A DNA stretch of 28,165 bases, from positions 1 through 28,165 of IMG/VR virus record IMGVR_UViG_3300037420_001135, one strand, 5' to 3'. Under the pieces are notes generated by a model, which saw only the letters and a program-made list of their open reading frames with translations, was not told the DNA's origin and did no database searches. This DNA comes from a virus (Duplodnaviria; Caudoviricetes). A program made the translations under genes and the position numbers. This document shows positions 8,829 through 26,591 of the stretch, in pieces. The first letter of the stretch is position 1; the number at the start of each line of letters is the position of its first letter.

Positions 8829-8830
8829 CA

Positions 8831-9476: not shown

Positions 9477-9754
9477 TGCTGACTTTCCTCTCAATAGTCT
9501 TTGTCGGGCTGTGCGCGTTTGATGCGTGGTTTTCTGCGCGTCAGATGCGATTGTTCGGTATCGCTGTTGAGTTGAACCGTTTTGTCCGATTCCTATGCGG
9601 ACGGTTCGGCATAGAGATCGGCGCAATCATTGGAGTGGGAGGGCCGAGTGTTGCTTTGCTCGCCCTCTCTCTTATTTTTCACGCGGAAGTCCCACTCGCG
9701 TTGATTGTAGGTTTCCGCTTCGCCCTTTTTCTCAAGCAGGTGATTCAACTGTGA
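9476..9754 (+). CDS. small membrane protein (DUF5658-like)
   Basis: TAATG overlap start; about three hydrophobic segments; D...G...ELN motif. Confidence 0.55.
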   Translation: MLTFLSIVFVGLCAFDAWFSARQMRLFGIAVELNRFVRFLCGRFGIEIGAIIGVGGPSVALLALSLIFHAEVPLALIVGFRFALFLKQVIQL

Positions 9755-10059
9755 GCAAGAGAACTCCCAAACATCAAGAAGACACAACGGGAATCTACAT
9801 CGTCCCGTCATGCCCGCTACACGGCTACACCGGAAGAGGTTCAGTCATGCCTGAGGTGATGGGATGCGCGTCGTGTGTGGAAGTAAACGCTCTCTACGCG
9901 GTTGCATCGAGTGACAGTTCGCAAAGTTACGTCAAGGTGCAAATGCTTCAAGACCTCGTGCATCACTGGGCGGAGGGCATCAAGTCGGGAAAGTTCACTA
10001 CTGTTGAGGATCTGATTTCCGATTTCAAAGTCGAGAAGAACGGACAGAAGCTCAACTAA
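9751..10059 (+). CDS. hypothetical protein with CPLH/CASC motifs
   Basis: GTGA overlap start, in frame with the track ORF 9595..10059. Confidence 0.6.
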   Translation: MSKRTPKHQEDTTGIYIVPSCPLHGYTGRGSVMPEVMGCASCVEVNALYAVASSDSSQSYVKVQMLQDLVHHWAEGIKSGKFTTVEDLISDFKVEKNGQKLN

Positions 10060-10060
10060 A

Positions 10061-10086
10061 CATCTCCCAAAAACCTTTCAATCTCA
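10061..10086 (+). repeat. dispersed repeat copy 8
   Basis: CATCTCCC-AAAAA-CCTTTCAATCTCA fills the gap between a stop and a start. Confidence 0.9.
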
Positions 10087-10089
10087 ACA

Positions 10090-10308
10090 ATGAAAACCTT
10101 CCTAAAATCCTGCTTTTCTGAAGCCGATGGCACAGTCAGCTTTTCTCGCTGCATAACGCTTCCCATCGTCTGCGCGGTCCTTGCCTGGGACTCGTGCTTT
10201 TTGAAAATTACTCACACCTTGCCTGATCCGATGACGCTTGGCGCGCAAGGGGTTCTGATGACCCTCTTCTACGGCGTGAACCGTAGCGCAGACGTTTTCA
10301 AAAAGTAA
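10090..10308 (+). CDS. holin-like small membrane protein
   Basis: 72 aa, two hydrophobic segments, SEADG.SFSR N-terminus, basic C-terminus. Confidence 0.55.
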   Translation: MKTFLKSCFSEADGTVSFSRCITLPIVCAVLAWDSCFLKITHTLPDPMTLGAQGVLMTLFYGVNRSADVFKK

Positions 10309-10312
10309 TTTT

Positions 10313-10334
10313 CATCCCCCCAAAACCTTTCAAT
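10313..10334 (+). repeat. dispersed repeat copy 9 (degenerate)
   Basis: CATCCCCC-CAAAA-CCTTTCAAT. Confidence 0.75.
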
Positions 10335-10371
10335 TACCTCCCTCTCAATCCCCGCCTAGGAAAAATCTAAA

Positions 10372-10683
10372 ATGGCCATCCTCTCCTCTCTCTTAACCCA
10401 CTCCGAAGCCCCCACGATCACAGGAACTCTCGCAACCACCACCTCTAGCGCGGCAATTGAGGTTGGCTCGAACGCGGCGGTTGCGATTGTTGGCACGGGA
10501 AACATGCACATCAAAGCAGGAACCTCTTCGGGCATGAATGCGGCTTCCACTTCGGATTTCCTCATTCCTTCGGGAGTCGTCTACACGATGGGCACAGGTC
10601 GGAATGTCACGCACATCCGCATCTACAACCCGACTGCGGGGAACGTTACCTACTACATCCAGCGTTTGGAGTCGGCGCGATAA
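10372..10683 (+). CDS. putative small virion beta protein
   Basis: Thr/Ser/Ala-rich; TAATG-coupled to the next gene. Confidence 0.6.
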   Translation: MAILSSLLTHSEAPTITGTLATTTSSAAIEVGSNAAVAIVGTGNMHIKAGTSSGMNAASTSDFLIPSGVVYTMGTGRNVTHIRIYNPTAGNVTYYIQRLESAR

Positions 10684-12389
10684 TGCGGAAGATAATTCTC
10701 ACAATTGCGCTCTCATCCCTCGCATTCGCCCAAGGACAATTCGGCGGTGGCGGAGGTGGGAATTCCTCTCTCCCCGACCAATCGGGTCAGTCAGGCAAAT
10801 TCCTCTCCACTAACGGCACCACGACCCAATGGAGCACTCCTGCTGGTGCGGGAGACGTGGCGGGACCGGCTTCGTCTACGGACTCACAGATGGTTCTATT
10901 TAATGGAATCACTGGAAAAGCCATCAAAGTTTCTTCGCTCTCGGGTGTAATCAAATCCACTTCGGGTGTTCCGAGTGCGGCTGCGGCAGCCGATATCGTC
11001 ACATTGTGGGCTGCAGGTGCGTGTTCGGGCTTGCTAAAAAGTGATGCGACTTGTGTAGCTGCACCTGCGAATACAACGGCCACAGCAAGCAATTTCTTTA
11101 CCGCATACAACTCAAGTACTGGCGCATTCACCAAAGCACAACCCGCGTTCTCAGACATTAGTGGCACAGCAACTTCCGCTCAGTTACCCAACCCCGGCGC
11201 ATCGGCTGGTGGAAAGGTGCAATCAAAAGATTGCACTGGAACAGGACACGTACTTTCTATTAACACCGATTCAACGGTAACGTGTTCGGCTGATTCTGGT
11301 GGGGGCGGTGGATCTGGAACGGTCAGCTCTGCGACCGTCAATCAGGTCGCCGTCTATACCGGCACAACGACAGTAGGTGGCGATGCTGGGATGACGTATG
11401 ACTCGGCCACCGACACGCTAACGGTTGGTGCTGTTACTACTACGGGCACAGCGGGTGAAGGCTCGTCTTGGAAATTCTCAGAAGGCACAACTCCCGCAAG
11501 TGGTCCAGCTGCGGGAAAGACCTTTCTTTACGCCGATTCAACATCCCACACCATTAAGGCTTCTTTCAATAACGGAAGTTATGTGGATTTGGCCAGAACT
11601 TCGGGCACGCTGACCTCGGGCAACTGCGCGAAGTTCGACGCGAGCGGGAACATCGTAGATAACGGTGCAGCGTGCGGAGGCGGTGGCAGCACGCCAACGG
11701 GCACAGGCTTCACGCATATCACTTCCGGCACGCAGGATGCGGCTGCTGCGCTTGTGAATCTAACTAGCTCGTCTCACGTTGCGGCAAACCAAGGTACGAC
11801 GACGCAAGTTTTGCATGGTAATGCGGCGGGTCAGGCTTCATGGTCAGCCGTAAGTCTTGCCAACGATGTGACTGGAAATCTTTCAGTCAACAATCTAAAC
11901 AGCGGAACAGGCGCGTCATCGTCAACGTTCTGGCGTGGGGATGGTACATGGGCTACCCCATCAGGTTCGGGCATCGGCACGGTGTTTGGGTTCTATGGCG
12001 GGGTCTCGGTAAGTGCATCAACAACAAGTTACTGTCCGATTCTCGGAGGCAACGTAGGTGGGTCGGGCGCGTGCTCGACAACGGAAGCAGACCGGACGAC
12101 CAAGATTCCGGTGGCCTGTACCGCCAAGAACCTTTACATCTATCTCGGCTCGGCACAATCCGGCACTGGAAGTCAGGTGCTCACGCTGCGCAAGGGTGCA
12201 ACTGTGGCGGGCATGGCCGACACGACCCTGACGGTGACGGTAGCGGCCGGGGCAACAGACGCAACTGTCACTCCTGATACGACGCATACAGTGGCGCTCT
12301 CGGCGGGGGACTATGTCTCGCTGAAGATCCAGAACAACGCCACCGCAGGTTCTGGCGTGGTTAATACCTACACCTTCCAGTGCCAATGA
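10683..12389 (+). CDS. fibre-like protein with N-terminal signal peptide
   Basis: MRKIILTIALSSLAFA|Q leader; Gly/Ser/Thr-rich fibre motifs (GKFLSTNGT, TFWRGDGTW, CAKFDASG). Confidence 0.75.
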   Translation: MRKIILTIALSSLAFAQGQFGGGGGGNSSLPDQSGQSGKFLSTNGTTTQWSTPAGAGDVAGPASSTDSQMVLFNGITGKAIKVSSLSGVIKSTSGVPSAAAAADIVTLWAAGACSGLLKSDATCVAAPANTTATASNFFTAYNSSTGAFTKAQPAFSDISGTATSAQLPNPGASAGGKVQSKDCTGTGHVLSINTDSTVTCSADSGGGGGSGTVSSATVNQVAVYTGTTTVGGDAGMTYDSATDTLTVGAVTTTGTAGEGSSWKFSEGTTPASGPAAGKTFLYADSTSHTIKASFNNGSYVDLARTSGTLTSGNCAKFDASGNIVDNGAACGGGGSTPTGTGFTHITSGTQDAAAALVNLTSSSHVAANQGTTTQVLHGNAAGQASWSAVSLANDVTGNLSVNNLNSGTGASSSTFWRGDGTWATPSGSGIGTVFGFYGGVSVSASTTSYCPILGGNVGGSGACSTTEADRTTKIPVACTAKNLYIYLGSAQSGTGSQVLTLRKGATVAGMADTTLTVTVAAGATDATVTPDTTHTVALSAGDYVSLKIQNNATAGSGVVNTYTFQCQ

Positions 12390-14251
12390 AGAAAGTCCTG
12401 CTTTTATTGCCGGTGCTTGCATCGCTTGCGTATGCGGGAGTGTGTCCCGGCGCGGCACCTGCGATTACCTCAGGTCCGACCGCAACAGCCCTCTCAACAA
12501 CTTCTGTCCGTGTGGACTGGACGACTGACTCACCCTCAGATTCATTCCTGATGTGGTCGGTTCCCAACGATGATGGTGGAAGCGTGGGAGATGCGTCCGG
12601 TGCTGGTCATACTGCAACGCTGGACACAGGAGGGGTAACTTCGCATTCGGTGACTGTCACCGGAATCTATCCAGCCGGGATTAGCTGGTACACGCAAGTT
12701 CGTTCGCGTTGTATTGCAGACACAAGCAAGTACATTCTTGCTACGGTGTTCATGAGTCCGACTGCCGCAGGCGCGGGATCTTACGACTATCGTCTGAACT
12801 TCTGGGGAGCGCACCACGTAGATGCGGGACATGACCTGCCTCTCGGCATGGACTTCTACTTGCTTTCTGATACAAGTTCAAGTCCAAATCATGCCTTGAG
12901 CGTCGTGGCTCAGAACTTACCCCCAGGAGCTACACTCTCGACCGATTCTGGTTCATTCGTGTGCGGCGGCGGCAATCACGTCAATGTTGTGGGGACTACA
13001 CTCACTTATTATCAGGACTGCACTGACCCAATCAATCTCAAGATCACCATTCCATCGAACACAACGCCGGGAACGTATAACACAAATTTCCATGTAACAG
13101 CAGCGGGTGGAGTACCAGCGGCAAAAGATTATCCGTGGACAATCGTCGTTGACTCGCCAGCTACGTTCACATTCGGGAATCCGAACTGGAGCACGACGCC
13201 GCAGATTCCGTGTTTAACAACAGGCTCATTACAGATGGATGGCTCACCATGTCCGAGGACATGGACAGGCGTCATGACCACGTACGCAGCACTGCGCTGC
13301 AACGACGCAACTTCGATCGGCAGTGAAAACACTCCTTATTACTACGATGGCTGGTGGGTGTTCTTGCGCGTCAAACAGTACGACGCGACCTTTGGGCTGA
13401 CTGGTAATTCGTCGCAATGGGATGCCTGCATTACGAATGTAAAGAACACGTACCTTCCGTATGCAGCGGGTTCACCGGCAGGCTGGCGTGTTTATCCAAG
13501 GGGACCGTACTACCATTGGCTGCTTAATGGAGACACCGCAGCGAAGTCTGCCGTGCAAAACCTTGCGACGAATGCGTCTGAGGCGAACTTAGCGTCAAAT
13601 GCAAATGTGCGCACGGTGCTTACTCGTGAAGCTGTCTACAAGCTTGACGCAGAACTTTACAACGCCAAGACTGGCGACACATCGCGCTCTGCGTATATGC
13701 AGAAGGCGCTGGACATCAACATCGGACGAGCCGATGAATGGGTGACGACGGGGCATGCTCCCTATATCCAACCCTTCTACACGGGACTGTGGGCGCAATC
13801 TCTGATTGACTGCTATGAATCACCACAATGCGTAGGCTATCAGGATAAGCGCATCCCGAAAGCCATCAAGACGGTTGCTGATTATTTATGGACGAACGCA
13901 TGGAACCTGAGTCTTTATCCGAACGCTTTTTATTACAACTCAGCCAACTATGCAGCTGGGCTTCCAGCGAGCGCAGGTTCTGACAACAGACAGCTCAACC
14001 ACTTCATCGCGCCCATGTACGCATGGTTGTTCAGTATCACAGGCGATTCTACTTATCAGGTCAGAGGCGACACCATATTCCAGAATGCGATCCTGCTCGA
14101 TCCGGTGAACGGCGGGTGCGGAGAAACCAACGGGCATTTTCCGTTCGGAGAGTGCTACCGCTTCAGTTTTGACTACGTGAAGTGGCGCAGTGCGCCCACC
14201 ACGAAGCACGTCGGAAAGGGCGTGACGGTTAGAGGCGGGACGGTTCGTTAG
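12386..14251 (+). CDS. signal-peptide protein with Fn3/Ig-like domains and an aromatic-rich helical (glycosidase/lyase-like) domain
   Basis: MKKVLLLLPVLASLAYA|G leader; VDWTTDSPSDS...HSVTVTG Fn3-like pattern; ATGA overlap start at 12386. Confidence 0.7.
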   Translation: MKKVLLLLPVLASLAYAGVCPGAAPAITSGPTATALSTTSVRVDWTTDSPSDSFLMWSVPNDDGGSVGDASGAGHTATLDTGGVTSHSVTVTGIYPAGISWYTQVRSRCIADTSKYILATVFMSPTAAGAGSYDYRLNFWGAHHVDAGHDLPLGMDFYLLSDTSSSPNHALSVVAQNLPPGATLSTDSGSFVCGGGNHVNVVGTTLTYYQDCTDPINLKITIPSNTTPGTYNTNFHVTAAGGVPAAKDYPWTIVVDSPATFTFGNPNWSTTPQIPCLTTGSLQMDGSPCPRTWTGVMTTYAALRCNDATSIGSENTPYYYDGWWVFLRVKQYDATFGLTGNSSQWDACITNVKNTYLPYAAGSPAGWRVYPRGPYYHWLLNGDTAAKSAVQNLATNASEANLASNANVRTVLTREAVYKLDAELYNAKTGDTSRSAYMQKALDINIGRADEWVTTGHAPYIQPFYTGLWAQSLIDCYESPQCVGYQDKRIPKAIKTVADYLWTNAWNLSLYPNAFYYNSANYAAGLPASAGSDNRQLNHFIAPMYAWLFSITGDSTYQVRGDTIFQNAILLDPVNGGCGETNGHFPFGECYRFSFDYVKWRSAPTTKHVGKGVTVRGGTVR

Positions 14252-14898
14252 CAGAACCAATAATTCGTCTTGCGTTCTCCATCGAGACGCGGACGAAGTG
14301 AACCGGAATCTTCGATATAGCAGGAATACCCGAGCATCTGCATTTGGTCGAAGAGTGGCGAGTCCCAGTTCGACTCGATGAGCCACATAGGACGATGGCG
14401 AGAGATGGTTGTTAAAGCTCCCTTGATGACGGGTAATTCGTGGCCTTCGACATCGACCTTGATGAAGTCGATCCGAGGAAGATTGAGCGAGTCAACGGTG
14501 ATGCAGGGGATGTCACCGGAATCGGCAACGATGTGGGCCTCGTAGATGTTAGGACACTCCATTGAGACGGTGCCGAGATGGTCGGAGACAGCGGCGTTGT
14601 GCAGGGTGACGTTAGGCAGTTCGCGGACGTTGTTTTTGAGGAAAGAAAACGTTTCCCGCATCGGTTCGATGGAAATGACCTGTGATGAAAGTCTCGATAG
14701 GTGCTTGGTGAAGATGCCGAGATTGGCTCCAAGGTCGAGGCAGACGAAGTCAGGTTTGATGACATGCGGCAGGATAGCAAGGTCCGCTTCGTCATTCACG
14801 GTGCTGCGCTGGAAGGTGCGTTGATAGTGAAACCGCTTTGCCACATGCAGAAGCGGCGACGGTAGATGGTGAGCGAGGGTCTTGAGTGCAGTGTTCAT
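14248..14898 (-). CDS. FkbM-family SAM-dependent methyltransferase
   Basis: LDLGANLG, IEP, NAAVSD and IDFIKVDVEGHE motifs. Confidence 0.9.
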   Translation of the reverse strand: MNTALKTLAHHLPSPLLHVAKRFHYQRTFQRSTVNDEADLAILPHVIKPDFVCLDLGANLGIFTKHLSRLSSQVISIEPMRETFSFLKNNVRELPNVTLHNAAVSDHLGTVSMECPNIYEAHIVADSGDIPCITVDSLNLPRIDFIKVDVEGHELPVIKGALTTISRHRPMWLIESNWDSPLFDQMQMLGYSCYIEDSGSLRPRLDGERKTNYWFC

Positions 14899-15131
14899 TT
14901 GGAACTCAGTGTCACGAGAAACAGGGTCATGCTGATGGCGAACAGAACATTGAATGAATAGGCGGCTGCATAGATGGCCGCAAACAGTAAAGCCATACAG
15001 ACCAGCGTTTTGAAGAATTCCCGCACAGTGCTTACCAAGCCGTGTTTTCGAGGTGGTTCGGATCTTCTTCGTTTATCGCATTCCACATGCGACGGAGCAG
15101 CTTTAGCAGTCGTTCCATAACAGGCCAGCAA
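14895..15131 (-). CDS. small membrane protein (start uncertain)
   Basis: Hydrophobic C-terminal half; ATGA overlap with the FkbM gene. Confidence 0.45.
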   Translation of the reverse strand: MLACYGTTAKAAPSHVECDKRRRSEPPRKHGLVSTVREFFKTLVCMALLFAAIYAAAYSFNVLFAISMTLFLVTLSSK

Positions 15132-15659
15132 GTCTATTACGGAAACGGGAAAGATAACAAGGTAGTTACTCCTCAGTTATCCCCTCCATCTCCCTCAAAT
15201 CCTTTCCATCTCAATCCCTCCGAAAGCTCCCCCTTGGAAATTCTTCTTATCGGCCTCGTTATTTCGCTCTTTTTCCACGCGAAAACCCATCTCCCAAAGC
15301 TTAGGAAAGTGAAGTTTCTGAAAGGTTTTAAGGGAGATGTTTTGGGGTGGGCTGTCGGTTTCTGCCTGCTCATCCACTTCCTCGACATCATTTCAACCAT
15401 GTTGGGAATGCGGGTCGGACTCTCTGAGTCAAACCCCTACATGCGAGATCCCTACACGCTCCAGTTCGTTCTCTCGTTGGGGATTAGCGTAAAGGCTCTC
15501 TGCACTCTGTTCTACGCTGCTCTCCCCTCTTACTTCATCCTCCGCGCCACCAAAAATCCCCTCCTCGCTTCCCTCCCCTTTTGGTGGGATGCATGGGAAG
15601 TGATTCCCGCCGTTGTGAACAACATCCTTCTCCTCCTTTTCAAACTTCATGGAAACTAA
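15042..15659 (+). CDS. membrane protein (DUF5658-like); true start probably further downstream
   Basis: DIISTMLG...SESNP motif and several hydrophobic segments. Confidence 0.55.
   Translation: MFSRWFGSSSFIAFHMRRSSFSSRSITGQQVYYGNGKDNKVVTPQLSPPSPSNPFHLNPSESSPLEILLIGLVISLFFHAKTHLPKLRKVKFLKGFKGDVLGWAVGFCLLIHFLDIISTMLGMRVGLSESNPYMRDPYTLQFVLSLGISVKALCTLFYAALPSYFILRATKNPLLASLPFWWDAWEVIPAVVNNILLLLFKLHGN
15187..15213 (+). repeat. dispersed repeat copy 10
   Basis: CATCTCCC-TCAAAT-CCTTTCCATCTCA. Confidence 0.85.
15318..15339 (-). repeat. dispersed repeat copy 11 (short form)
   Basis: CTGAAAGG-TTTTAA-GGGAGATG on the plus strand. Confidence 0.85.
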
Positions 15660-17820
15660 ATCCCCCGAACAGATTGCGGCTGAAGAAAAACTCCGAACCG
15701 ACACCGAGGCTTGTGTTGAGCAGATGCTTTTCTTCAGGCGGCTCAACGATGCTGCGAACTTCCGCTTCTACAAGCAATTCGTCGGTTATCGCGAACAACA
15801 GTTCTTTCCTGATGGCGTGACGAAGAGATCGAACCTCTTCTTCCCCTATCCGCAGTCGAACGTTGAGACCATTACCTCCCGAGTGGATGACGCTCTGTTT
15901 CCTGATGGGGATTGGTTTGAGTGCAACGGCGAGGGAATGGCCGACCAGCCTGCGGCGGAGAAGATGGGGACGGTGCTCAAGTACAAGCTTGAGCGGGCCG
16001 ATGCGATTGGAACGGGCTTTCAGCCGGTCATTAAGAATGCTTGTATCTATCGGCTTGCGGGCCTCAAGGTCGATTGGGACCACGGCTACGACATCGTGGA
16101 TTACAAGGAACCGGTTTTTCCGTTGGCTCCCGTCACCCAGCCGATTGTTGATCCCCAAACAGGACAACCACAGACCGACGCTAACGGCCAACCTGTGATG
16201 CAGATGGTGGTTGACCCGCAGACTGGTCAACCTCAAATGACTCCTGACCAGAACCAACCTCCGATTGGCTTCCGTCCCGCGCAGAAACCCGTTAAGCGGA
16301 ACCGTCCAAAGTTCATCCCTATCGACCCGTTCGACCTTTTGGTTGATCCGAACGGTATCTACATCGGGCACATAGTTGAAAGGTCTTTGGGGGAGATGAT
16401 TCGTGAGGCTGAGGGCTTCAAGGCTCAAACGGGCGAAGACCTCTATTTTCCCGAGGCGCTGGATGAAATCAAGAATCACCTTGTCACGCAGAAGGAACCG
16501 CTGAACGTCATCATTCGGTTTGCGGAAGTGTGGAACCGGATTGATGGGAGTGTGGTTCAACTCACTTGCAAGGACCAAGATGGACTTTCTTGGAAAGACG
16601 CTCGACTCGCTCTTCGCGCCCTTAACTCCTCTTCCTTTAATCGGCAGATGTACGGCGGGAAGACGGTTGTGTTGTATGCGGGCAAGAACCAATTCGCGCA
16701 CAAGCAAATCCCGATCCTCACCACCTCCTACATCAAGATCCCGAACGAGATTTACGGCATCAGCGCGGTTGAGACGATTGCCGAGCTGAACGAGCACCTT
16801 TCCAAGCAAGTCGGGATTCTGGAAGATAACTGGAACATGGGAGTCAATGCCCGCTACGGCATCAACACCGATGCGGATGTTGACCACGATTCGCTCAACA
16901 ACGCGAACGTGCCCGGTGGGAAGGTGTTTGGCTCAGGCGACCCGAAGACCTGGATGTTCCCGCTTCCGATTCTCAAACCTGAGCAGGGTGACTACCAGAT
17001 GATCGAACTCACTCGCGGCATGTGTGAGATGGGTTCGGGTGTGAGCGACTTCTATTCGAAGGGTGTGGGTGCTCCGAGCGACAACGGCACCGCGACCGGA
17101 ATCGCTTCCATCATCAATGAGAGCAATTTCCGCTTCAAGCAATTCATCCGCAACATCGGTCGGGACATCCTTCGTCCCGCGTTGAAGATGACCGCCTCGA
17201 TGATTCAGCAGTTTGTGACCAACGAGGAAGAGATGCTCATTACCGATGAGCAGGCGGGCATTCCTAAGATTGAGATGCTCATCCCTGAGCAGATTATCGG
17301 GCAGTTCGATTTCGTGGTGAACGACGCAAACTATGCTTCGAACAAGACCGTCAGGCAGCGCAATCTGATGGCACTCGCGAATATTGCGAAGGAGAGCGGG
17401 TATCTGAAAGAGGGTGCGGGACTCCGCAGGCTGTTCAAGGAATTCCAAATCCCAGGTTGGCAAGAGTTGGTGATGACCGACCAAGAGTATGCCGCCAATC
17501 AGCAAGCGCAACAACAACAGATGTTGCAGATGCAATACCTCGAACTTCAGAAGGAACTCATTCTGATCGAGGCCAAGGCGAAAGCCGCGTGCATGTGCAA
17601 GGACGAGAAAGGCGGGGGAAAACCAGCCCTCGGCTCGTCCTCAAAGGACTCCAAACCTCGCGGATCGAACGATGGCAGGGGCGGGGGACGTAAGCCTTCG
17701 ACCCAAATGGAAGGCTCAATCCCCGGCGCGGGCACGACTTCCGAGAGCCGTCTGAGTGCTCAGGGAGTGGGTGCGAACTCGCTCGGACTTGGGCAGATGG
17801 GTGAGATTGGGAACGGCTAA
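15649..17820 (+). CDS. portal protein (podovirus-type)
   Basis: 723 aa, between terL and scaffold/capsid; YGISAVE, SGVSD...G and TATG motifs; Gln-rich C-terminus. Confidence 0.85.
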   Translation: METKSPEQIAAEEKLRTDTEACVEQMLFFRRLNDAANFRFYKQFVGYREQQFFPDGVTKRSNLFFPYPQSNVETITSRVDDALFPDGDWFECNGEGMADQPAAEKMGTVLKYKLERADAIGTGFQPVIKNACIYRLAGLKVDWDHGYDIVDYKEPVFPLAPVTQPIVDPQTGQPQTDANGQPVMQMVVDPQTGQPQMTPDQNQPPIGFRPAQKPVKRNRPKFIPIDPFDLLVDPNGIYIGHIVERSLGEMIREAEGFKAQTGEDLYFPEALDEIKNHLVTQKEPLNVIIRFAEVWNRIDGSVVQLTCKDQDGLSWKDARLALRALNSSSFNRQMYGGKTVVLYAGKNQFAHKQIPILTTSYIKIPNEIYGISAVETIAELNEHLSKQVGILEDNWNMGVNARYGINTDADVDHDSLNNANVPGGKVFGSGDPKTWMFPLPILKPEQGDYQMIELTRGMCEMGSGVSDFYSKGVGAPSDNGTATGIASIINESNFRFKQFIRNIGRDILRPALKMTASMIQQFVTNEEEMLITDEQAGIPKIEMLIPEQIIGQFDFVVNDANYASNKTVRQRNLMALANIAKESGYLKEGAGLRRLFKEFQIPGWQELVMTDQEYAANQQAQQQQMLQMQYLELQKELILIEAKAKAACMCKDEKGGGKPALGSSSKDSKPRGSNDGRGGGRKPSTQMEGSIPGAGTTSESRLSAQGVGANSLGLGQMGEIGNG
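16376..16398 (-). repeat. dispersed repeat copy 12 (inside the portal CDS)
   Basis: TTGAAAGG-TCTTTGG-GGGAGATG on the plus strand. Confidence 0.65.
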
Positions 17821-17824
17821 GTAA

Positions 17825-17844
17825 CTGAAAGGTTTTGGGAGATG
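17825..17844 (-). repeat. dispersed repeat copy 13 (short form)
   Basis: CTGAAAGG-TTTT-GGGAGATG; supplies the ATG at 17842. Confidence 0.9.
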
Positions 17845-18021
17845 AAATGTGGCGAAGCCATTCTCGACCCTGAGTTCGAACGAACCTCGATGGGCATTCA
17901 GAACTGCCGCCTCTTCCTGTGTGATCGGATGCTCAGTTATTACGAGACTGAAGAGTACGAAATCATCACCCGACCTTACGTGACTTTCATCGCCTGCGCG
18001 GATTGTGCCGAAAAACTTTAA
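17842..18021 (+). CDS. small Cys-rich protein (59 aa, below the cutoff)
   Basis: MKCGEAILDPEF...CADCAEKL*; bounded exactly by repeat copies 13 and 14. Confidence 0.6.
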   Translation: MKCGEAILDPEFERTSMGIQNCRLFLCDRMLSYYETEEYEIITRPYVTFIACADCAEKL

Positions 18022-18022
18022 C

Positions 18023-18049
18023 CATCTCCCCCCAAACCTTTCCATCTCA
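18023..18049 (+). repeat. dispersed repeat copy 14
   Basis: CATCTCCC-CCCAAA-CCTTTCCATCTCA, immediately followed by the ATG at 18050. Confidence 0.9.
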
Positions 18050-18400
18050 ATGATTAGTTACCTCAAATCCCTCGTCCGTCCGCTGGTGATTGAAACCACC
18101 GCCGAGAAACCCACTCTCACTGAATCCACTCTCCTTGACCTCAAACAACTTCAATATCGGGACGGGTTCAAATACATCCTCGCATCGCTGCGATTCAAGA
18201 AAGCCGTCGCGCAGAGCAAGCTGGTGAGTGAGACCGATGCGAAGTTAATTCCCCATCTGCAAGCGATGGTGAGAGCGATTGATTTGCTGGAAGCCGATCT
18301 CCGCATGTTTGCGCAGATGGACACCAAGAAATCTCGTCCCGCAGAGGACGAAGAGATTCGACTCTTCAAAAAAGTCTCAGCCTCGACCACTTTGGTCTAG
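18050..18400 (+). CDS. hypothetical helical protein between portal and scaffold
   Basis: ATG at 18050 is in frame with the track ORF 18005..18400. Confidence 0.65.
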   Translation: MISYLKSLVRPLVIETTAEKPTLTESTLLDLKQLQYRDGFKYILASLRFKKAVAQSKLVSETDAKLIPHLQAMVRAIDLLEADLRMFAQMDTKKSRPAEDEEIRLFKKVSASTTLV

Positions 18401-18407
18401 AAGGCGC

Positions 18408-18460
18408 TGTCCGCTGAAGCGGCTTGTCCATTAATAACGGACATCGCAAAAGAGCGGACA
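18408..18460. repeat. short TGTCC(G) / (C)GGACA direct and inverted array
   Basis: TGTCCGCT at 18408, TGTCCATT at 18425, AACGGACA at 18436, AGCGGACA at 18453. Confidence 0.6.
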
Positions 18461-18516
18461 TCTCGTGTTCGACAGCCACAAGCTGTCAAATCCAAAAACC
18501 CCACAAGGGAGAATGA

Positions 18517-19485
18517 ATGAAAGCACTAACCAACCGCGTTTGCGGATTGGCTTTGGTCCTGCTCGGTCTCGGCACTGATGCCATTACCGCAGGAGTTACG
18601 CCCGCCGCAACCGACCCCACATCAGTCGTAGATATGTTCTCGACTACTGCTGATGGCAGCCAGCCGACAACGGCAACCACGGGAACAACCACCTCTGTCG
18701 ATCCTGGTGCGACAACGCCCGCTTCTTTCGAGCTTCGTGCTGGAGAGAGCGTCTATCGGTCGGTGGAGGAAGCTCAACGGGGCATTGAGCATAAAGACAG
18801 CTTAATCAATCTGCTCCGCAGTCAAGTGACACAGACTACAGGCATTGACCCTCTCACGGGTCAGCGCGTGCAGCCTGGACAGATGCAGCCGATGGTTGGG
18901 CCACAAGCCCCCGTTCGCTACATCGACAATCCGAATCAGTATGCAAAAGACCTGACCGAAGCCGTGCAGATGGGCCAGCAGACGGGGGATTATTCCCGTT
19001 ATCACGCAGTCCAGAAGCAGATGGCCTCGGAGCAGATGGAGCAGCAGTTCGCTCCATACATGCCGGTCCTTCACAACTTTGTCGAGACCTCGGCGGTTCA
19101 GCAGGTTTCTGCTCAGATCCCTGAGTTCGGCAAGTTCTACGGATCTCCGGAGTTCAAGAAGACCCTCGACGCACAGCCTCTTTTGAAAATGGGCATCGAC
19201 AACGCGAAAGCGAACCCACAATTCGCCTCGCAACTTCCCGAACTTTACAAGCAGGTCTATACCGTTGCGGAGAACGCTCGCTTGAAGGCGCAGTTGGCTG
19301 AGCTTCAAAAAGCCTCGCAAACTCCCACTCAACCTGTCCGTCCCACGGCTCAACCGCTTTCCACTCAACCTCAAACGGGGAATGTGAATGTCCAGGATTG
19401 GAGAACCGATCCTGCCGCTCGCAAAGCCTACATTGAGCAACAGAAGAAAGCCGGGATTGAGAACGTGGTGATGCCGCTTGCGTGA
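18517..19485 (+). CDS. probable capsid scaffolding protein
   Basis: Immediately upstream of the capsid gene; low-complexity N-terminus, YRSVEEA motif, Gln-rich helices. Confidence 0.7.
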   Translation: MKALTNRVCGLALVLLGLGTDAITAGVTPAATDPTSVVDMFSTTADGSQPTTATTGTTTSVDPGATTPASFELRAGESVYRSVEEAQRGIEHKDSLINLLRSQVTQTTGIDPLTGQRVQPGQMQPMVGPQAPVRYIDNPNQYAKDLTEAVQMGQQTGDYSRYHAVQKQMASEQMEQQFAPYMPVLHNFVETSAVQQVSAQIPEFGKFYGSPEFKKTLDAQPLLKMGIDNAKANPQFASQLPELYKQVYTVAENARLKAQLAELQKASQTPTQPVRPTAQPLSTQPQTGNVNVQDWRTDPAARKAYIEQQKKAGIENVVMPLA

Positions 19486-19518
19486 GGGGAGAAATCTTCC
19501 TTCAAAGGATAAATCTCT

Positions 19519-19574
19519 ATGAAATTCAAATTTACCTGGCTGCTCTCGATCTTCGGTTTGGGTGCAGACGTGAT
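19519..19574 (+). CDS. major capsid protein exon 1
   Basis: AAGGA SD, MKFKFTWLLSIFGLGADV+AT; joins exon 2 in frame (AT|C = Ile). Confidence 0.8.
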
Positions 19575-19658
19575 TAACTAAATGGTCACGTAACTTGGCT
19601 ATATGCTGGAACATCCTAATACTTACGGTTACTGTTTACGTAAAAATACCTAAGTTAA

Positions 19659-19692
19659 GGTGAAGTCGAACCCGTTATTCGGCTGTCTAATT
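19659..19692 (+). promoter_or_regulatory. phage late promoter motif inside the intron
   Basis: GGTGAAGTC-N17-GTCTAATT ending 23 nt before the endonuclease ATG. Confidence 0.75.
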
Positions 19693-19715
19693 GAGCAGAA
19701 TAACAGAGAACCTTA

Positions 19716-20246
19716 ATGGACAATCAGCAGGAAAGATTTCTGGAATCGAAGCAATTAAAACAATATGGCGACCTTAATTGGTTAGTCGGGTTATGGGAGG
19801 GTGAAGGAACCTTCACTCTTGTAGCCGGAAGCAAGCGGAGAATCATGCCGCGCCTCTCACTTATCAATTCAGATTTCGATCTAATCGACGAAGTGAGCCG
19901 GATTTTAACTGACAACATGGTTGGTCACTATATACAAACACGCAAAGGCGGATGTACGAACAATCCTAAACATAAGGATGTTAAGACCGTCAGTATTTGC
20001 GGATTAAAACGTGTAGCGCATTGTGTTCGTACGTTTATGCCTTATATACGGGGTAATAAACGGAAAGTAGCACAGCTTGTTGGAGAGTATGCGGAGCACA
20101 GATTAGGTCTCCCCAAAAACGCTTCCTACACGGATAAAGATTACACGTATGTAAAAGCCGTACGTGTCCTAAATCGTAAAGGTCCAGAAAAATCCTCAGA
20201 GACTACACGCCAAGCTCCCGTTTATTTTCGCGGGAAGAAGATATAG
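19716..20246 (+). CDS. LAGLIDADG homing endonuclease (single motif)
   Basis: WLVGLWEGEGTF motif; intron-encoded. Confidence 0.85.
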   Translation: MDNQQERFLESKQLKQYGDLNWLVGLWEGEGTFTLVAGSKRRIMPRLSLINSDFDLIDEVSRILTDNMVGHYIQTRKGGCTNNPKHKDVKTVSICGLKRVAHCVRTFMPYIRGNKRKVAQLVGEYAEHRLGLPKNASYTDKDYTYVKAVRVLNRKGPEKSSETTRQAPVYFRGKKI

Positions 20247-20270
20247 TCCAAACCGCATTTAGCGGTAAAG

Positions 20271-21225
20271 CACAGTTACAACTGGTTCGGCTGGCTCTGC
20301 CGGTTCGACCGCAGCTGAACTCGTCAACTTTATCGACGCGCAGATGCTTGATGTCGCGGAACTCAACACCGTGCTCAAGCAATTCGGTCAGGCGAAGCCT
20401 CTTCCGAAGGGCGTCGGTTCCAAAACGATTCAGTTCAACCGTATGGAAAAACTGACGGTCTCTGCGTCTCCGACTCAGTTGACCGAAGGTTCGCAGCCTG
20501 ACGCGGTTGGTCTGACGATCAATCAGTTCACCGCTACGACCGAGCAGTACGGCAACTTGGTTCGTATCGCGGACCTCGCGGAACTTTCCGCAAAGCATCC
20601 GCTGATTCAGGAAGCAATGCAGAAGCTTGGGTTGTGGTCTGCGGAAGTCATCGACATCCTCATCTACAACGTGATTGACGCTGCGACCAACGTGTATCGC
20701 GTGAACAACCGTGCGGGTGACACCTCAACCCTCGCTTCGGACGTTCCGAGTTACAACGACCTTGTGGAGCTGAATGCGATCCTGGTGACGCAGGGTGCAA
20801 AGCCGTTTGCCGATGGCAATTACGCTTTCATCACTTCGCCTCAGCCGTACGCTTCGCTGCAGCGTGATCCGGACTGGAAGGCTGCTAACCAACTCGCAGG
20901 CGCGGACAAGATTTTCCGTGGTCAGGTTGGCGCAATCTCCGGCATGAGCGTGACCCGCTCGAACTCTCCGGCTTATGCCGTGACCTCGCAAGCCACGACC
21001 GGCTTCTCGAACAAGATCTACTCTTCGTTCGCAGTTGGCATGGGTGCGTATCAGGTCTCGGATTTCCAGAGCCTTGAGTCCATCGTGACGCCTCCGGGTG
21101 GTCACGGGGATGCGCTGAAGCAGAGCACGAAGCTCGGTGTGAAGTTCTCCATGAAATCGGTCATCACGAACCAGGCATGGATCCGCCGTGTGCGTAGCTC
21201 CGGCAACGATTCCATCACCAACTAA
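20271..21225 (+). CDS. major capsid protein exon 2 (N4-gp56-like family); spliced product 336 aa
   Basis: QFGQAKPLPKGVGSKTIQFNR, LTEG, QYG and GQVG motifs; frame is open from 20272. Confidence 0.88.
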
Positions 21226-21236
21226 TCTCTAGCCTT

Positions 21237-21265
21237 CTGAGGGGAGGACACAATCCTCCCCTCGG
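21237..21265 (+). terminator. strong hairpin after the capsid gene
   Basis: CTGAGGGGAGGA/TCCTCCCCTCGG stem; lacks a good U-tract. Confidence 0.45.
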
Positions 21266-21298
21266 GAGCAATTTCAAGAAAAGGACAAAAGCCACACA

Positions 21299-21619
21299 AT
21301 GGCAGACCCCAAAGCAAAACAATCAGAAGTAAAAGCAATGACGCTCGATGAAGCGTTCAAAACCGACAAGAGCGATTGGGAATACGTTGCGATCCCTCAG
21401 TTCACCGTTCTCGGCACTGAGCACGATTCCATTTCGCTCAACAACTACGAATTCGCGGCGGGCAAGAAACACTTCGTCCCGAAGGTTGTTGCCGAACAGT
21501 TGCGTGACCGCCTCGCTGCGGACCACGAACAGAAGCTCCGTATCAACTCCGACCAGAAACGGATGGAAGTGATTCGCCGGACTCGCGGGGCTATTGATAT
21601 GCCGGTAGAGGGCATTTAA
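21299..21619 (+). CDS. hypothetical protein (106 aa)
   Basis: AAAGGA SD; follows the capsid gene. Confidence 0.7.
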   Translation: MADPKAKQSEVKAMTLDEAFKTDKSDWEYVAIPQFTVLGTEHDSISLNNYEFAAGKKHFVPKVVAEQLRDRLAADHEQKLRINSDQKRMEVIRRTRGAIDMPVEGI

Positions 21620-21632
21620 GAGGGAAAATAAA

Positions 21633-22058
21633 TTGCAACTCAAATCTGAATCCCAGCTTCTAAGAGAAGTGATCTACAAAGAGGCGAGGGGTGAGGGCAA
21701 ACAGGGAATGGAAGCGGTTGGGCATGTGATTCTCAACCGCTCCAAAGCCTGGAATCAAAGGCTCACGAAGGTGATTACCGGGCCTAATCAATTCTCGTGT
21801 ATGTCCGTCCCCTCCGACCCCCAATACCTGAAGCCCTGCCCGATGCCTGACGATCCCGCTGGGAAGTTGTGGGAGGCGGCGGGTGAGATAACTGAAAGGT
21901 TTATGGGAGATGATAAGCCTGAAGATATAACCAACGGCGCTCTTTACTACTGCAACCCTAAAAGTAGTACCTCGGGCTGGTTCAGCCGCAATATAGTGGG
22001 GAAGCCTAAGGAGCATCCGTTGGTGGCTGTGTTGGGCAAGCATCATTTCTACGCCTAA
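21633..22058 (+). CDS. cell wall hydrolase, SleB/Hydrolase_2 family (probable endolysin)
   Basis: EARGE...AVGHVILNR, QFS, GALYY and GKHHFY motifs. Confidence 0.88.
   Translation: MQLKSESQLLREVIYKEARGEGKQGMEAVGHVILNRSKAWNQRLTKVITGPNQFSCMSVPSDPQYLKPCPMPDDPAGKLWEAAGEITERFMGDDKPEDITNGALYYCNPKSSTSGWFSRNIVGKPKEHPLVAVLGKHHFYA
21892..21912 (-). repeat. dispersed repeat copy 15 (inside the lysin CDS)
   Basis: CTGAAAGG-TTTAT-GGGAGATG on the plus strand. Confidence 0.85.
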
Positions 22059-22081
22059 GGGTGAAAATAATTTTCAGAAAT

Positions 22082-22115
22082 GGTGAAGTCGGAACCCGTT
22101 TTCGGGAGTCTAATT
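22082..22115 (+). promoter_or_regulatory. phage late promoter motif
   Basis: GGTGAAGTC-N17-GTCTAATT. Confidence 0.75.
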
Positions 22116-22119
22116 ACAC

Positions 22120-22219
22120 AGAGGGCTTCGGTAGGAGCCGGTACTAAATGACGCTCTGAGGGGAGCAATCCCAAAAGGTCTCATCGTCGGGGAGATGCCG
22201 GTTCCTTCCCAAGTCCTCT
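22120..22219 (+). ncRNA. candidate ~100-nt rod-like RNA
   Basis: Nested stems AGAGGGCUU/AAGUCCUCU, GGAGCCGGUA/UGCCGGUUCC, GACG/CGUC, UGAG/CUCA and a GCAA tetraloop; starts at the predicted TSS. Confidence 0.6.
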
Positions 22220-22267
22220 TTTAAGTTTAATCAGGAGGTGACTTATGCGTTAGGAGGAAACCTAACC

Positions 22268-22585
22268 ATGAGTCGTTCGTTTAAGAAACGGCCTTTTCAG
22301 GCTATTTGTGGCGGCGGAAGTGCAAAGCACGATAAACAGCTTGCGGCACGCGGAATGCGCCGTCGTCAGAACCAAGCTCTGCGTACTGCAGATGATTTTG
22401 AAGATTTTTTGATTCCGCATCGTTATGAGTGCGCTTTCAACGAGACGTATTGTTGGGGGCGTGATGGATCTCAGATGTATCAAGGTCTGGATGCCGGGAG
22501 AACTTGGCACTATTACGGACCTGATGGATGCCTGTGGGATGGTCAATGGCCTCCCAAGTGGTATCAGAAGATGATGCGGAAATAA
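22268..22585 (+). CDS. basic hypothetical protein (MSRSxKK...MRK type)
   Basis: AGGAGG SD before the ATG at 22268; Arg/Lys-rich N-terminus, aromatic C-terminus. Confidence 0.75.
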   Translation: MSRSFKKRPFQAICGGGSAKHDKQLAARGMRRRQNQALRTADDFEDFLIPHRYECAFNETYCWGRDGSQMYQGLDAGRTWHYYGPDGCLWDGQWPPKWYQKMMRK

Positions 22586-22589
22586 GCGT

Positions 22590-22790
22590 GGCTCCCTGCT
22601 TTGCCCTGACGCGGAACTAATGCGTTATCAACGGAGCCGTGAGAATGATGGCTATACGCTATCAGCCTACACACGGTGCCACATGATGTCCTAGGAAACG
22701 TCATGTGGTGGAGCGCATCCGGCCTTTCCCTAGATGCGCGTATAGGGAGCCTTCCCGAATTGAGTCGGGTTCAGGTGCGGGGATCTGAAA
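22590..22790 (+). ncRNA. candidate multibranch structured RNA
   Basis: Closing stem GGCUCCCU/AGGGAGCC (22590/22744) encloses 4-5 hairpins, e.g. CCACAUGAUGU/ACGUCAUGUGG and GCGCAUC/GAUGCGC. Confidence 0.55.
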
Positions 22791-22815
22791 CCGTGATAGC
22801 GTCCAATCCCTCCCG

Positions 22816-23424
22816 ATGTTCTCGCTCGCTTCCCTCTTAGCTTCACCACTTCTCCGAAAGGCTCTCGCTACCTTAGGAGTTGTTCTCCTTTTGTGGGGCG
22901 CTTACGAATGGGCTTACCAGCGTGGGCGTTCCACAGGAGAGCAAGAGGGAAAGATTTCTCAGCTTCAGGAAGATAAAAAGGCTTGGGAGGCCGATAGAGC
23001 GAAGTTCGAACAAACGCTCAACGCCCTCAGCGATCAGAAGAAGGCCGCCGAACAACGAGCGGATGTGGCCGAGCAATCGGTTGCTCAACTAAAGCAAGGT
23101 CTCAACGACATCAAGCGGGCAGTTGCGGCAAATGTTCATCCGACTGACGACGCAACGAAGCTAGCCGACTACGACGCGCTCTACGAAGAGAACCAGCAGC
23201 GCAAGCAGATTGAGGCCAAGCAGCAAGAGCAAATCGACGCGCTGAAATCTCAGGTCGATATTCAAGGCAAGCAACTCGCAGCGACTCTCGACCAGCTCCA
23301 CAAGACCGAAGTGGTCTACGCGAAGGCTTATAACGCCGCACAGAAAAGAAATTGGTTTCAACGTCTCTTCCATCTCAAGGGTAGGCATCTAGACCTCCCC
23401 ACCCCAATCTCCATCTCCCAATAA
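22816..23424 (+). CDS. membrane-anchored coiled-coil protein (i-spanin-like)
   Basis: N-terminal hydrophobic segment then a long coiled coil; close to the lysin gene. Confidence 0.5.
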   Translation: MFSLASLLASPLLRKALATLGVVLLLWGAYEWAYQRGRSTGEQEGKISQLQEDKKAWEADRAKFEQTLNALSDQKKAAEQRADVAEQSVAQLKQGLNDIKRAVAANVHPTDDATKLADYDALYEENQQRKQIEAKQQEQIDALKSQVDIQGKQLAATLDQLHKTEVVYAKAYNAAQKRNWFQRLFHLKGRHLDLPTPISISQ

Positions 23425-23438
23425 ACCTTTCCATCTCA
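23412..23438 (+). repeat. dispersed repeat copy 16
   Basis: CATCTCCC-AATAAA-CCTTTCCATCTCA; the spacer carries the stop at 23422-23424 and the next ATG is at 23440. Confidence 0.9.
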
Positions 23439-23439
23439 A

Positions 23440-24537
23440 ATGCTCCAGACCACCACAGCACAAAATATCGTTGACGATGTATCCCAAGATGTCCGCAAGG
23501 TGTTGGGCAACTCTGGAACCGACGCGACCATTATTCTCGGCTATGTCAATCGCGTTCAGCAGAGGATTCTGAGGAATCAGCGCCACCCGTTCCTACTCTC
23601 CGCGCCTAAGCAGTTCGTGACGCAGTTGGGAGTGACGGACTACTGGATCGGCACAAGCGGCTCCGCGACCGCAGGCACCTACGACACGGGACTCAATCTC
23701 ACCGACATCGGATTCATCCAACCTAATCATGTTTGGGATCGGAGCAACAACACGCCGCTAGCGCGAGTCGATTCCGATCCCCTCCCCGTCAGCTTCCAAT
23801 ATCAGGACGGAACATCCCGAATCGGCAGACCGACAAGCTGGCTCGATGTGGATGTAACCACCCCAAACGTCCTCTCCATCTTTCCCGCTCCCGACAATCA
23901 GAACTCTTACCAACCAATCGGCGCGGCTCCTATCTTGTCAACCACCACGAGCGGAGCACTCTCAGCCCGCACTTACTATGTGCGCCTGACGGTTGTGGAT
24001 TCGAATGGTGGGGAGAGTCTGCCGGGGCCAGAAGCACAGGTGTTCGTTCCCGCAAACAAACTCCTGATGGTGAAATCTCCCGCCACGCCGGTCAACCCTG
24101 CGAGCGGAATCCCCTACACAAAGTTCAACGTTTACATTTCGACCACCAGCGGGAGCGAGACCAAGCAAGGAACGGGAACAAACTTCGGCTCAGATTTCAC
24201 GGAATCCATAAGCGGACTCTCCGCAGGCACCCCCCTCCCAACCGCCTCCACTATCGAACCTCTTCGCGGCTATCTGATTGAGTTCCGCTACTACAAGACC
24301 CGTCCGACCGTTTCCTCGCTCGCGACTGTTCTCCTGATCCCCGACGATTACGCCGACATCGTGAAGGCGGGCGTGAACGAACTCACTTTCAAATTCTTGA
24401 AGGCCGATAACGAAGCGGCTTACTGGCAACGCCTCTTTCTCGACGGCCTACGTCAGATCACCCGCGACTACAATCTCCAGCCCTCCGCGAACTCAAACTT
24501 CATCGGCCCCGACCCGATGATGAATAGCAATTTCTAA
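23440..24537 (+). CDS. probable head-tail adaptor with inserted Ig/Fn3-like domain
   Basis: Helical ends, GRPT, FPAPD and LLIPDDY motifs; internal TYYVRLTVVDSNGGES module. Confidence 0.6.
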   Translation: MLQTTTAQNIVDDVSQDVRKVLGNSGTDATIILGYVNRVQQRILRNQRHPFLLSAPKQFVTQLGVTDYWIGTSGSATAGTYDTGLNLTDIGFIQPNHVWDRSNNTPLARVDSDPLPVSFQYQDGTSRIGRPTSWLDVDVTTPNVLSIFPAPDNQNSYQPIGAAPILSTTTSGALSARTYYVRLTVVDSNGGESLPGPEAQVFVPANKLLMVKSPATPVNPASGIPYTKFNVYISTTSGSETKQGTGTNFGSDFTESISGLSAGTPLPTASTIEPLRGYLIEFRYYKTRPTVSSLATVLLIPDDYADIVKAGVNELTFKFLKADNEAAYWQRLFLDGLRQITRDYNLQPSANSNFIGPDPMMNSNF

Positions 24538-24540
24538 GCC

Positions 24541-24593
24541 TGTTCAATATTTCGGCGTGTTCAAAAATATTGAACAAAGACAAATATTGAACA
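24541..24593. repeat. TGTTCAATATTT direct and inverted array
   Basis: Direct copies at 24541 and 24558; inverted AAATATTGAACA at 24565 and 24582. Confidence 0.8.
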
Positions 24594-24598
24594 CAAGC

Positions 24599-24624
24599 CA
24601 TCTCCCATAAACCTTTCAATCTCA
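24599..24624 (+). repeat. dispersed repeat copy 17
   Basis: CATCTCCC-ATAAA-CCTTTCAATCTCA. Confidence 0.9.
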
Positions 24625-24637
24625 CGTATCTCCACAA

Positions 24638-24659
24638 CTGAAAGGTTTTGAGGGAGATG
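24638..24659 (-). repeat. dispersed repeat copy 18 (short form)
   Basis: CTGAAAGG-TTTTGA-GGGAGATG; inverted relative to copy 17, 13 bp away. Confidence 0.9.
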
Positions 24660-24673
24660 AAAAATCCCTCCTG

Positions 24674-26590: not shown

Positions 26591-26591
26591 C

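Follow-up and report, generated by a model that had tools for sequence, protein, structure and literature searches.

MITE-like cassettes carry terminal inverted repeats, are bordered by a target-site duplication and bear their repeats only as element ends; an integron cassette has one palindromic attC site each, in direct orientation, and the partner sites of a shufflon share a crossover core of fixed length. A processing stem of the RNase III type is a partner-specific long-range duplex. Chi sites are short and contiguous, and signals of the DUS/Chi type are present in hundreds of copies in the host chromosome.

Sites dispersed over phage genomes have also been described. In the available part of one account (PMC4351075), the 17-bp repeat of Cluster O mycobacteriophages is present in tens of copies genome-wide, with no function assigned and with occasional gene gain or loss between copies; its sequence forms a perfect dyad around a fixed 3-bp centre, and copies are more crowded towards one end of the genome. 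The same part of that source presents the stoperators of Cluster A, which are asymmetric, dispersed, phage-specific sites oriented with transcription and in many cases located at gene junctions, and the start-associated sequences of Cluster K, which are tied to start codons. The nick sites of T5, phiKMV-like and tf/LUZ24-like phages are dispersed and strand-specific with a consensus that differs by group, the phiKMV consensus being bipartite; in the portion of the source at hand they occur on one strand only and are uneven in tf (PMC3517423). Among replication modules, CCPol-MP-Cch2 (PolA-SSB primase) of SCCmec combines an A-family polymerase, a small protein and a helicase near a recombinase with no canonical primase, and a dispersed lattice of sites is not described in the accessible parts of its two accounts (PMC7581432, PMC10061031). 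Every one of these closest known systems differs from the element described below in at least one of the defining features tested.

The portal junction and the 59-aa gene

The window, that is the whole stretch of DNA analysed, is the complete 28,165-bp contig of a podovirus-like phage (IMGVR_UViG_3300037420_001135), with genes for terminase (7305-8828), portal (15649-17820), capsid, adaptor and internal virion proteins; the same proteins are found on a 64,141-bp contig. The metagenomes in which the phage occurs are from soil and rhizosphere, and its capsid protein is at most 31% identical to records of the phage collection; the single match in bacterial assemblies, a 3.3-kb contig in a Terriglobia MAG, is a weak hint of a Terriglobia host. 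The family resembles the phiEco32/SU10-like podoviruses in its SU10-type portal and adaptor, phage sigma factor and phiEco32-like COOH.NH2 ligases, as far as the available part of their description extends (PMC4331800).

A second repeat, GTGAAGTC-N17-GTCTAA, has a fixed 17-nt spacer and six copies in the window (3167-3197 on the minus strand, 5134-5164, 5670-5700, 6589-6619, 19660-19690 and 22083-22113); in several relatives the GTCTAA end recurs behind other first boxes. These copies are likely promoters for a phage ECF-type sigma factor, and the sigma promoters of phiEco32 and 7-11, in the same partial description (PMC4331800), correspond to this separate repeat and not to the two-box motif treated here. 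An endonuclease-like ORF (5134-5673) lies between two of the promoter-like copies and has homologs at varied positions in 16 of 79 related loci; another copy lies in the region of ~19600-20340, where the capsid gene likely holds a group I intron (weak Rfam match at 20033-20265, E=0.063) with a LAGLIDADG-like ORF at 19716-20246. Elsewhere in the window, an FkbM-family methyltransferase is encoded on the opposite strand within the late region (14248-14898, minus), and a hammerhead type II-like match at 4487-4540 (minus) is below the gathering score (30.2 of 37 bits, E=0.019).

The locus between the portal gene and the next conserved gene consists of the following features:

15649-17820, plus strand: portal gene (SU10/P22-like), with one motif copy in frame
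17827-17844, minus strand (pyrimidine form on the minus strand, purine form read on the plus strand): left motif copy with a 4-nt spacer, giving an SD-like box and ATG to the 59-aa ORF
17842-18021, plus strand: 59-aa accessory gene with five cysteines, likely zinc-binding; its start position is common to P0130 and P0001
18023-18049, plus strand: right motif copy, pyrimidine form with CATCTCA tail, core at 18023-18042, abutting the ATG at 18050
18050-18400, plus strand: conserved 116-aa gene after the portal (family 5)

The description of this locus in the sequence-only reading, a 59-aa ORF between inverted copies of a repeat, agrees with the sequence at 17827-18042: the left repeat, GAAAGG-TTTT-GGGAG-ATG (17827-17844), is the source of the start codon, and the inverted copy at 18023-18042 begins 1 nt past the stop, which ends at 18021. 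Protein comparison makes it very likely that the 59-aa ORF is a genuine gene; P0130 shares 62% identity with it, including the first ten residues unchanged and four of the five cysteines, P0001 is a 95% variant, and close strains keep the ORF. All three changes in P0001 cluster around the C-terminal CxxC (compared at the protein level with 17998-18015), and the next protein on the P0001 contig differs at one residue; at the protein level only, the clustered changes may be read as diversity-generating. The P0001 and P0130 loci were not found in the viral contigs searched. Alignment of the portal gene yielded 79 other loci, many with a two-box repeat of their own; the exact motif and the 59-aa ORF are absent from all of these, the small ORFs gave no phmmer match in 250 other loci, and an atlas search with the 59-aa ORF returned only scores below 0.9.

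At the DNA level the flanks on the two sides of the pair share no direct repeat that would represent a target-site duplication. One contig covers 15976-21935 intact, and two short contigs depart from the window exactly at the portal stop. Inversion or excision joints at motif copies were not found in eight shallow contig runs, such contigs dropping rare variants (X8-X11 over 1-20000; X3, X5, X6 and X7 over 14901-27500). In RNA, the two copies are base-paired with each other in the minimum-energy fold of 17815-18060, which conceals the ribosome-binding site (RBS) of the ORF and has a z-score of -1.05.

Copies of the motif in the window and in related phages

The window carries 19 dispersed copies of the motif, split 10:9 between the strands and with 4-7 nt separating the two boxes; the 18 strict copies compare with 0 in each of 200 resamples, which is far beyond chance. 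Apart from the two copies at the portal junction, these are, together with the small ORF that lies between the second and third of them:

249-269, minus strand: motif copy with tail, intergenic
1310-1330, minus strand: motif copy just beyond the stop of the 69-aa ORF
1335-1544, minus strand: 69-aa Zn-ribbon-like ORF, its start from the 1542 copy
1542-1561, plus strand: motif copy with tail; its reverse gives the ATG of the 69-aa ORF
3269-3288, minus strand: motif copy directly after the stop of 3289-4017
6161-6180, minus strand: motif copy with tail, following the stop of 5710-6156; the ATG it contains opens only five codons
6385-6404, plus strand: motif copy with tail, abutting the stop of the ORF at 6205-6384
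7258-7277, plus strand: motif copy with tail, upstream of the terminase large subunit
10061-10079, plus strand: motif copy with tail, intergenic
10313-10331, plus strand: motif copy with one mismatch, without tail
15187-15206, plus strand: motif copy with tail, in the DUF5658 ORF or just ahead of it
15320-15339, minus strand: motif copy inside the DUF5658 coding frame
16378-16398, minus strand: motif copy inside the portal frame
21894-21912, minus strand: motif copy inside the cell-wall hydrolase frame
23412-23431, plus strand: motif copy with tail, before the adaptor gene
24599-24617, plus strand: motif copy with tail, outward pair with 24640
24640-24659, minus strand: motif copy before the 638-aa internal virion gene
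26592-26611, plus strand: motif copy with tail, before the gene at 26623

Three copies (15320, 16378 and 21894) are inside coding frames; the portal copy at 16378 encodes part of ERSLGEMI where the most frequent sequence of relatives is ERTLGQ, and since there is no indel the copy arose in place. The copy at 23412 is kept, with a changed spacer, in a 180-bp contig with nine differences. The ATCTCA tail is strand-biased in the window (9 of 10 copies vs 2 of 9, p=0.005). An SD-like box is present at only 12 of 33 gene starts examined in the window, and the genes behind the pyrimidine form with tail are mostly without one. Head-to-head copies lie 10 and 22 nt apart at 5527/5552 of one relative (G001) and at 24599/24640 of the window, where local hairpins with an internal loop are possible.

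An Rfam scan returned no family reaching its gathering score, and a CRISPR-repeat mimic was considered and dropped; a ATTGAAAG-like end is present in only some copies. Among viral contigs the exact full motif occurs only in this phage; metagenome contigs hold eight single, unrelated matches, and the relaxed core gives five single matches, none with genes of the family. The features of a phage sigma promoter, a near-fixed spacer of ~17 nt and orientation with genes, are absent from the motif, which has a 4-7 nt spacer and is found in both senses.

From the related loci 23 contigs were taken, chosen by length and partly by visible repeats, so the sample is biased; 19 of the 23, and 10 of 12 near-complete genomes, have a bipartite, variable-spacer motif of their own. 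Version A is CCAGGC..ACCCCTC and aligns by eye with the motif of the window, version B is CCACC..GGGTCC, version C is ACCCCGTT..GCGAGG and version D is ACCCCTT..GGTAGG; the site architecture has at least five sequence versions in this podovirus-like family. One relative (G010, L142-L144) has a one-box repeat, GCCGGGACA, in 14 copies over 44 kb instead of a clear two-box motif, and no convincing motif was found in G013, G014 and G018, though a recombinase-like gene is present. When the collection was scanned for class C, 15 of 15 contig groups with at least two copies matched core genes of the family vs 1 of 40 single-copy groups, some groups possibly being one contig. As to a genome-wide signal of the host, the core motif of the window is present in 0 of 301 Terriglobia-class genomes, and the class-A motif has one copy in G024. 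Multi-copy motifs are confined to the phage family where tested, and the restriction of class C together with the Terriglobia result makes the signal look phage-encoded.

Arrangement of the sites and the inverted pairs

Order and spacing were analysed for 243 strict copies; the motif patterns were derived from the relatives' own genomes and used neither property in their definition. Of these copies, 101 lie in called genes (simple custom gene caller), and the ratios of sense to antisense relative to transcription are 42:30 (A), 40:23 (B), 15:25 (C) and 9:7 (window). The strands are balanced, at 10:9 in the window, 17:15 in G001, 8:8 in G005 and 9:9 in G007. Spacing along each strand is regular in the relatives: 21 of 23 strand series are more evenly spaced than the random mean, 11 of them at p<0.05, and of 166 same-strand gaps, which have a median of 5.3 kb, 3 are shorter than 1 kb where 28 would be expected; the two strand series of the window itself are not significantly regular (p=0.16 and 0.48). 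For 40 of 49 weaker hits (47 distinct), the distance to a strong copy on the same strand exceeds the random median. Neighbouring copies switch orientation in 165 of 223 cases vs 116.5 +/- 7.1 by shuffling; when 38 weak copies are added in ten near-complete genomes, alternation (132) equals that of two independently regular strands (130.2, p=0.39). Because the alternating orientations follow from even per-strand spacing, many inverted pairs come about that are not units in themselves.

Copies that have an opposite copy no more than 500 bp away are still modestly over-represented (27 vs 16.3; p about 0.002). Neither this nor the strand-biased tail is accounted for by the best explanation; both could reflect a secondary use at the level of RNA. 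The sequence-only reading had also offered long-range RNA stems that loop the ORF out for processing. In the form considered here, inverted copies would pair in the mRNA as helix-loop-helix stems, looping out genes for processing or controlling translation of the enclosed ORF. The copies do pair in the minimum-energy fold of the locus, with the RBS hidden, and both the close-pair excess and the tail bias would suit such stems. Partner specificity, the defining feature of an RNase III-type stem, is absent, however: neighbouring inverted copies form duplexes no better than non-neighbours, whether 0, 6 or 12 flanking bases are included, they share spacers and flanks no more than non-neighbours do, and identical spacers are found at the same rate, 10%, in opposite copies that are neighbours and in those that are not. 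The z-score of the fold is -1.05, the alternation is accounted for without pairing, and local stems would not need one shared sequence; RNA stems are very unlikely to be what the copies are for.

The other claim made from the sequence was that the inward pairs are mobile or exchangeable mini-gene cassettes and that the arrangement at the portal junction recurs at 1308-1568 and 6153-6411. The window does have three inward pairs within 250 bp, with inserts of 211, 204 and 178 bp (0.8 pairs expected, p=0.03), and the likeness stops short of identity at both of the other places: the layout holds for the pair 1310/1542 with its 69-aa ORF on the minus strand, and the left ATG of the pair 6161/6385 opens a frame of only five codons, the enclosed 59-aa ORF starting 27 nt after that ATG, at 6205. 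The 69-aa ORF found only itself in a homology search and unnamed Zn-ribbon-like clusters in the atlas search; a small ORF with five cysteines at 8831-9028 is without repeats. The remaining 13 of the 19 copies are outside the three inward pairs and include the outward pairs 15187/15320 and 24599/24640.

The portal junction of relatives bears on the same claim. In G021, the layout is the same with an unrelated small ORF started by a purine-rich copy, and in G003 a pair surrounds a 29-nt loop with no ORF; both are distant phages carrying another version of the motif. G001 has one copy after the portal stop and one inside the portal gene, G002 has one copy, and class C phages have one site before the RBS of the next gene; the motif lies within -110..+25 of the start of the 116-aa gene in 9 of 18 genomes. 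Both flanking genes were called in 21 relatives; in nine of these, accessory genes follow the portal and the motif is absent or present once. The junction is thus an insertion hot spot in which a motif copy is often present. Across the family, a single complete small gene is enclosed by only 4-5 of the 33 inverted pairs spaced 100-800 bp, and in one case this is a core gene; the remaining pairs cut through genes or hold none.

That the inward pairs are the ends of cassettes moved by a phage tyrosine recombinase would be in keeping with the other ORF of G021, the ORF-less pair of G003, the three pairs of the window, the recombinase encoded by the family and the two contigs that leave the window at the portal stop. 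A small ORF between short repeats, in a genome with a tyrosine recombinase, is also what this locus shares with integrons, MITEs and shufflons. Against this, copies arose in place within conserved frames, the variable spacer is accompanied by no target-site duplication beside the pair, few close pairs enclose one whole gene, accessory genes at the portal junction are mostly without pairs, and the eight shallow runs contain no joints. With respect to MITE-like cassettes, the terminal inverted repeats are present (17827-17844 and 18023-18042), but the duplication is absent and repeats are not restricted to element ends, as the in-frame portal copy and the 101 of 243 copies in genes make plain; the two inverted, non-palindromic copies and the lone copies elsewhere do not correspond to attC sites, and a spacer of 4-7 nt is not the fixed-length core of a shufflon. 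The cassette reading is unlikely and carries very little probability, while the motif is taken, with a probability of about 0.85, to be a dispersed polar DNA signal and not a set of cassette ends.

On this view, the small accessory gene inserted after the portal would likely have taken over the left copy for its RBS and start codon, since gene junctions are preferred locations of the motif and its purine-rich form resembles a ribosome-binding site and can double as one; the right copy at 18023 would be an ordinary site before the next gene. Some window copies serve as RBS and start in the manner of the Cluster K start-associated sequences, unlike which the motif is at the start of 52 of 845 genes and is not tied to start codons (PMC4351075, available part). 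The Cluster O repeat is similarly dispersed, with about a third or more of copies in genes and no tie to the direction of transcription; the motif differs from it in being asymmetric, with a 4-7 nt spacer, even spacing per strand and clade-specific versions, so far as the same part of the source describes that repeat (PMC4351075).

Candidate reader protein and a possible role in replication

Among the genes of the relatives are those for a tyrosine-recombinase-like protein, a sigma factor, a Pol A that has UDG-like and exonuclease domains, a helicase that stands alone, an SSB-like protein and a nuclease; the window is without the replication region and without the recombinase-like gene. The N-terminal domain of the recombinase-like protein is found in 17 genomes, including 12 of 12 near-complete ones, and its homologs are often without the catalytic half: by-eye reading of 14 short-form proteins finds the C-terminal His/Tyr kept in five, Phe at the Tyr position in one, degenerate or cut-short sequence in three and the N-terminal domain only in five. 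Some relatives have a second, longer integrase. Of 13 genomes, 7 (from classes A, B and D) have a motif copy over the RBS or start of the recombinase-like gene, vs 52 of 845 genes overall; the interval scored, -45..+10, was set after seeing the data, the genomes are related to each other, and for a phosphatase-like gene family the corresponding count is 8 of 11. Among six other core proteins for which trees were compared, five (portal, capsid, Pol A and both terminase subunits) sort the motif classes with about the same success as the recombinase domain, and phylogeny therefore gives the recombinase-like protein no special place; an apparent class specificity of the recombinase (0.32 vs 0.0) did not survive this comparison. 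That a recombinase-derived protein reads the motif is, from these observations, close to an even bet.

Such a protein may be a stoperator-type repressor blocking elongation, a candidate on positional evidence. The copies would then be operators or roadblocks, giving self-repression and genome-wide damping of transcription, with which the overlap with the RBS or start of the recombinase-like gene, the missing or degenerate catalytic half of most homologs and the second integrase of some relatives are in keeping. The motif resembles the Cluster A stoperators in its asymmetry, dispersal, phage specificity and frequent location at gene junctions; however, stoperators follow transcription, according to the available part of the account (PMC4351075), and the motif is found in both senses with 101 of 243 copies in genes. 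Nor would operators be expected to show regular spacing strand by strand, and this function is unlikely.

The copies might instead be nicking or nicking-closing sites for packaging, ejection or relief of supercoils, comparable to the breaks in T5, phiKMV and tf; the known sites are dispersed and group-specific with a bipartite consensus in phiKMV (PMC3517423, in part), like the motif, and 5 of 14 recombinase-like proteins keep the C-terminal His/Tyr in the by-eye reading. The known sites lie on one strand in that portion of the source, whereas the motif is balanced on both, and 9 of 14 homologs are without the catalytic Tyr or the whole domain by the same reading; nicking is distinctly unlikely.

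Polar sites evenly spaced on both strands would also suit Chi-like signals, which after a break would act from either direction, halting or redirecting a nuclease or loading a recombination protein; among the gene products of the family are an AAA_24 protein and a PD-(D/E)XK nuclease. The known Chi sites are short and contiguous, the overlap with the start of the recombinase-like gene is not predicted, and the motif is not host-wide in the genomes sampled (0 of 301 of the Terriglobia class, the host hint being one 3.3-kb MAG contig), in which it departs from a genome-wide signal of the host; a Chi-like role is highly improbable.

The tentatively preferred reading, held at somewhat less than even odds, is that the polar sites are read by a phage protein, the best candidate being derived from a tyrosine recombinase, and mark the priming or reloading of replication on either strand. 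Two-box sites about every 5 kb per strand would be polar landing sites for a phage-encoded DNA-binding protein, each site covering a range of a few kilobases on its own strand; a range of this size is what a priming or replisome-loading signal would need, and it is not predicted by operators, promoters or cassette ends.

No primase domain was detected among 144 non-structural proteins of at least 95 aa from five relatives, a scan which left out genes below 95 aa or spanning the 20-kb cut points; the helicases match the helicase half of primase-helicase profiles, and one PHROG profile named 'DNA primase' matches them over most of its length. Host DnaG could be the source of priming. Pol A, a small protein and the helicase are adjacent in this order in most of 15 relatives. 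The slot after Pol A holds one of two helicase families, AAA_25 or DUF3987, which separate G004, G007, G008, G012, G017 and G018 from the other relatives, and no helicase was called there in G002. The small protein encoded there, of ~100 aa (L120:15687-16001 and homologs, alignment A2), lies between Pol A and helicase and is conserved in the 15 relatives; its model (pLDDT 87) features a five-strand SH3-like barrel and a long helix, with no named family and only weak nearest folds (SH3/Tudor/PWWP-like, none at E<=0.001).

This gene set recalls CCPol-MP-Cch2 in its A-family polymerase, small protein, helicase near a recombinase and lack of a canonical primase, but the analogy was set aside on the fold: the small partner protein in CCPol-MP has an OB fold (PMC10061031, accessible part), and the protein of the relatives is predicted to be an SH3-like barrel. 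The polymerase of the relatives is moreover full-length with UDG-like and exonuclease domains, unlike CCPol-MP as portrayed in the accessible parts of both sources (PMC7581432, PMC10061031). A fuller scenario would have primase-less replication proceed through a polar two-box lattice of ~5 kb per strand, with a catalytically retired recombinase reading the sites, recruiting polymerase or helicase, controlling its own gene from the site that covers the gene's start, and co-evolving with the sites into clade-specific versions; taken as a whole, it is doubtful.

The element is real and found across the family, a variant of the DNA sites dispersed in phage genomes that is apparently undescribed, the open literature searched for the motif family or its mechanism (most subscription journals and supplements being outside its scope) yielding no description. 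Dispersed phage repeats and nick consensus sites have long been without an assigned function, and here at least five site versions, a spacing rule and a candidate reader are found in one family; cross-specificity is therefore testable with purified proteins, no cultured phage being needed. If the replication reading is false, the motif is still a family-wide cis-element, one for which the literature searched offers no description; if it is true, these phages would provide a new way to prime or reload DNA synthesis, along with a set of orthogonal protein-site pairs.
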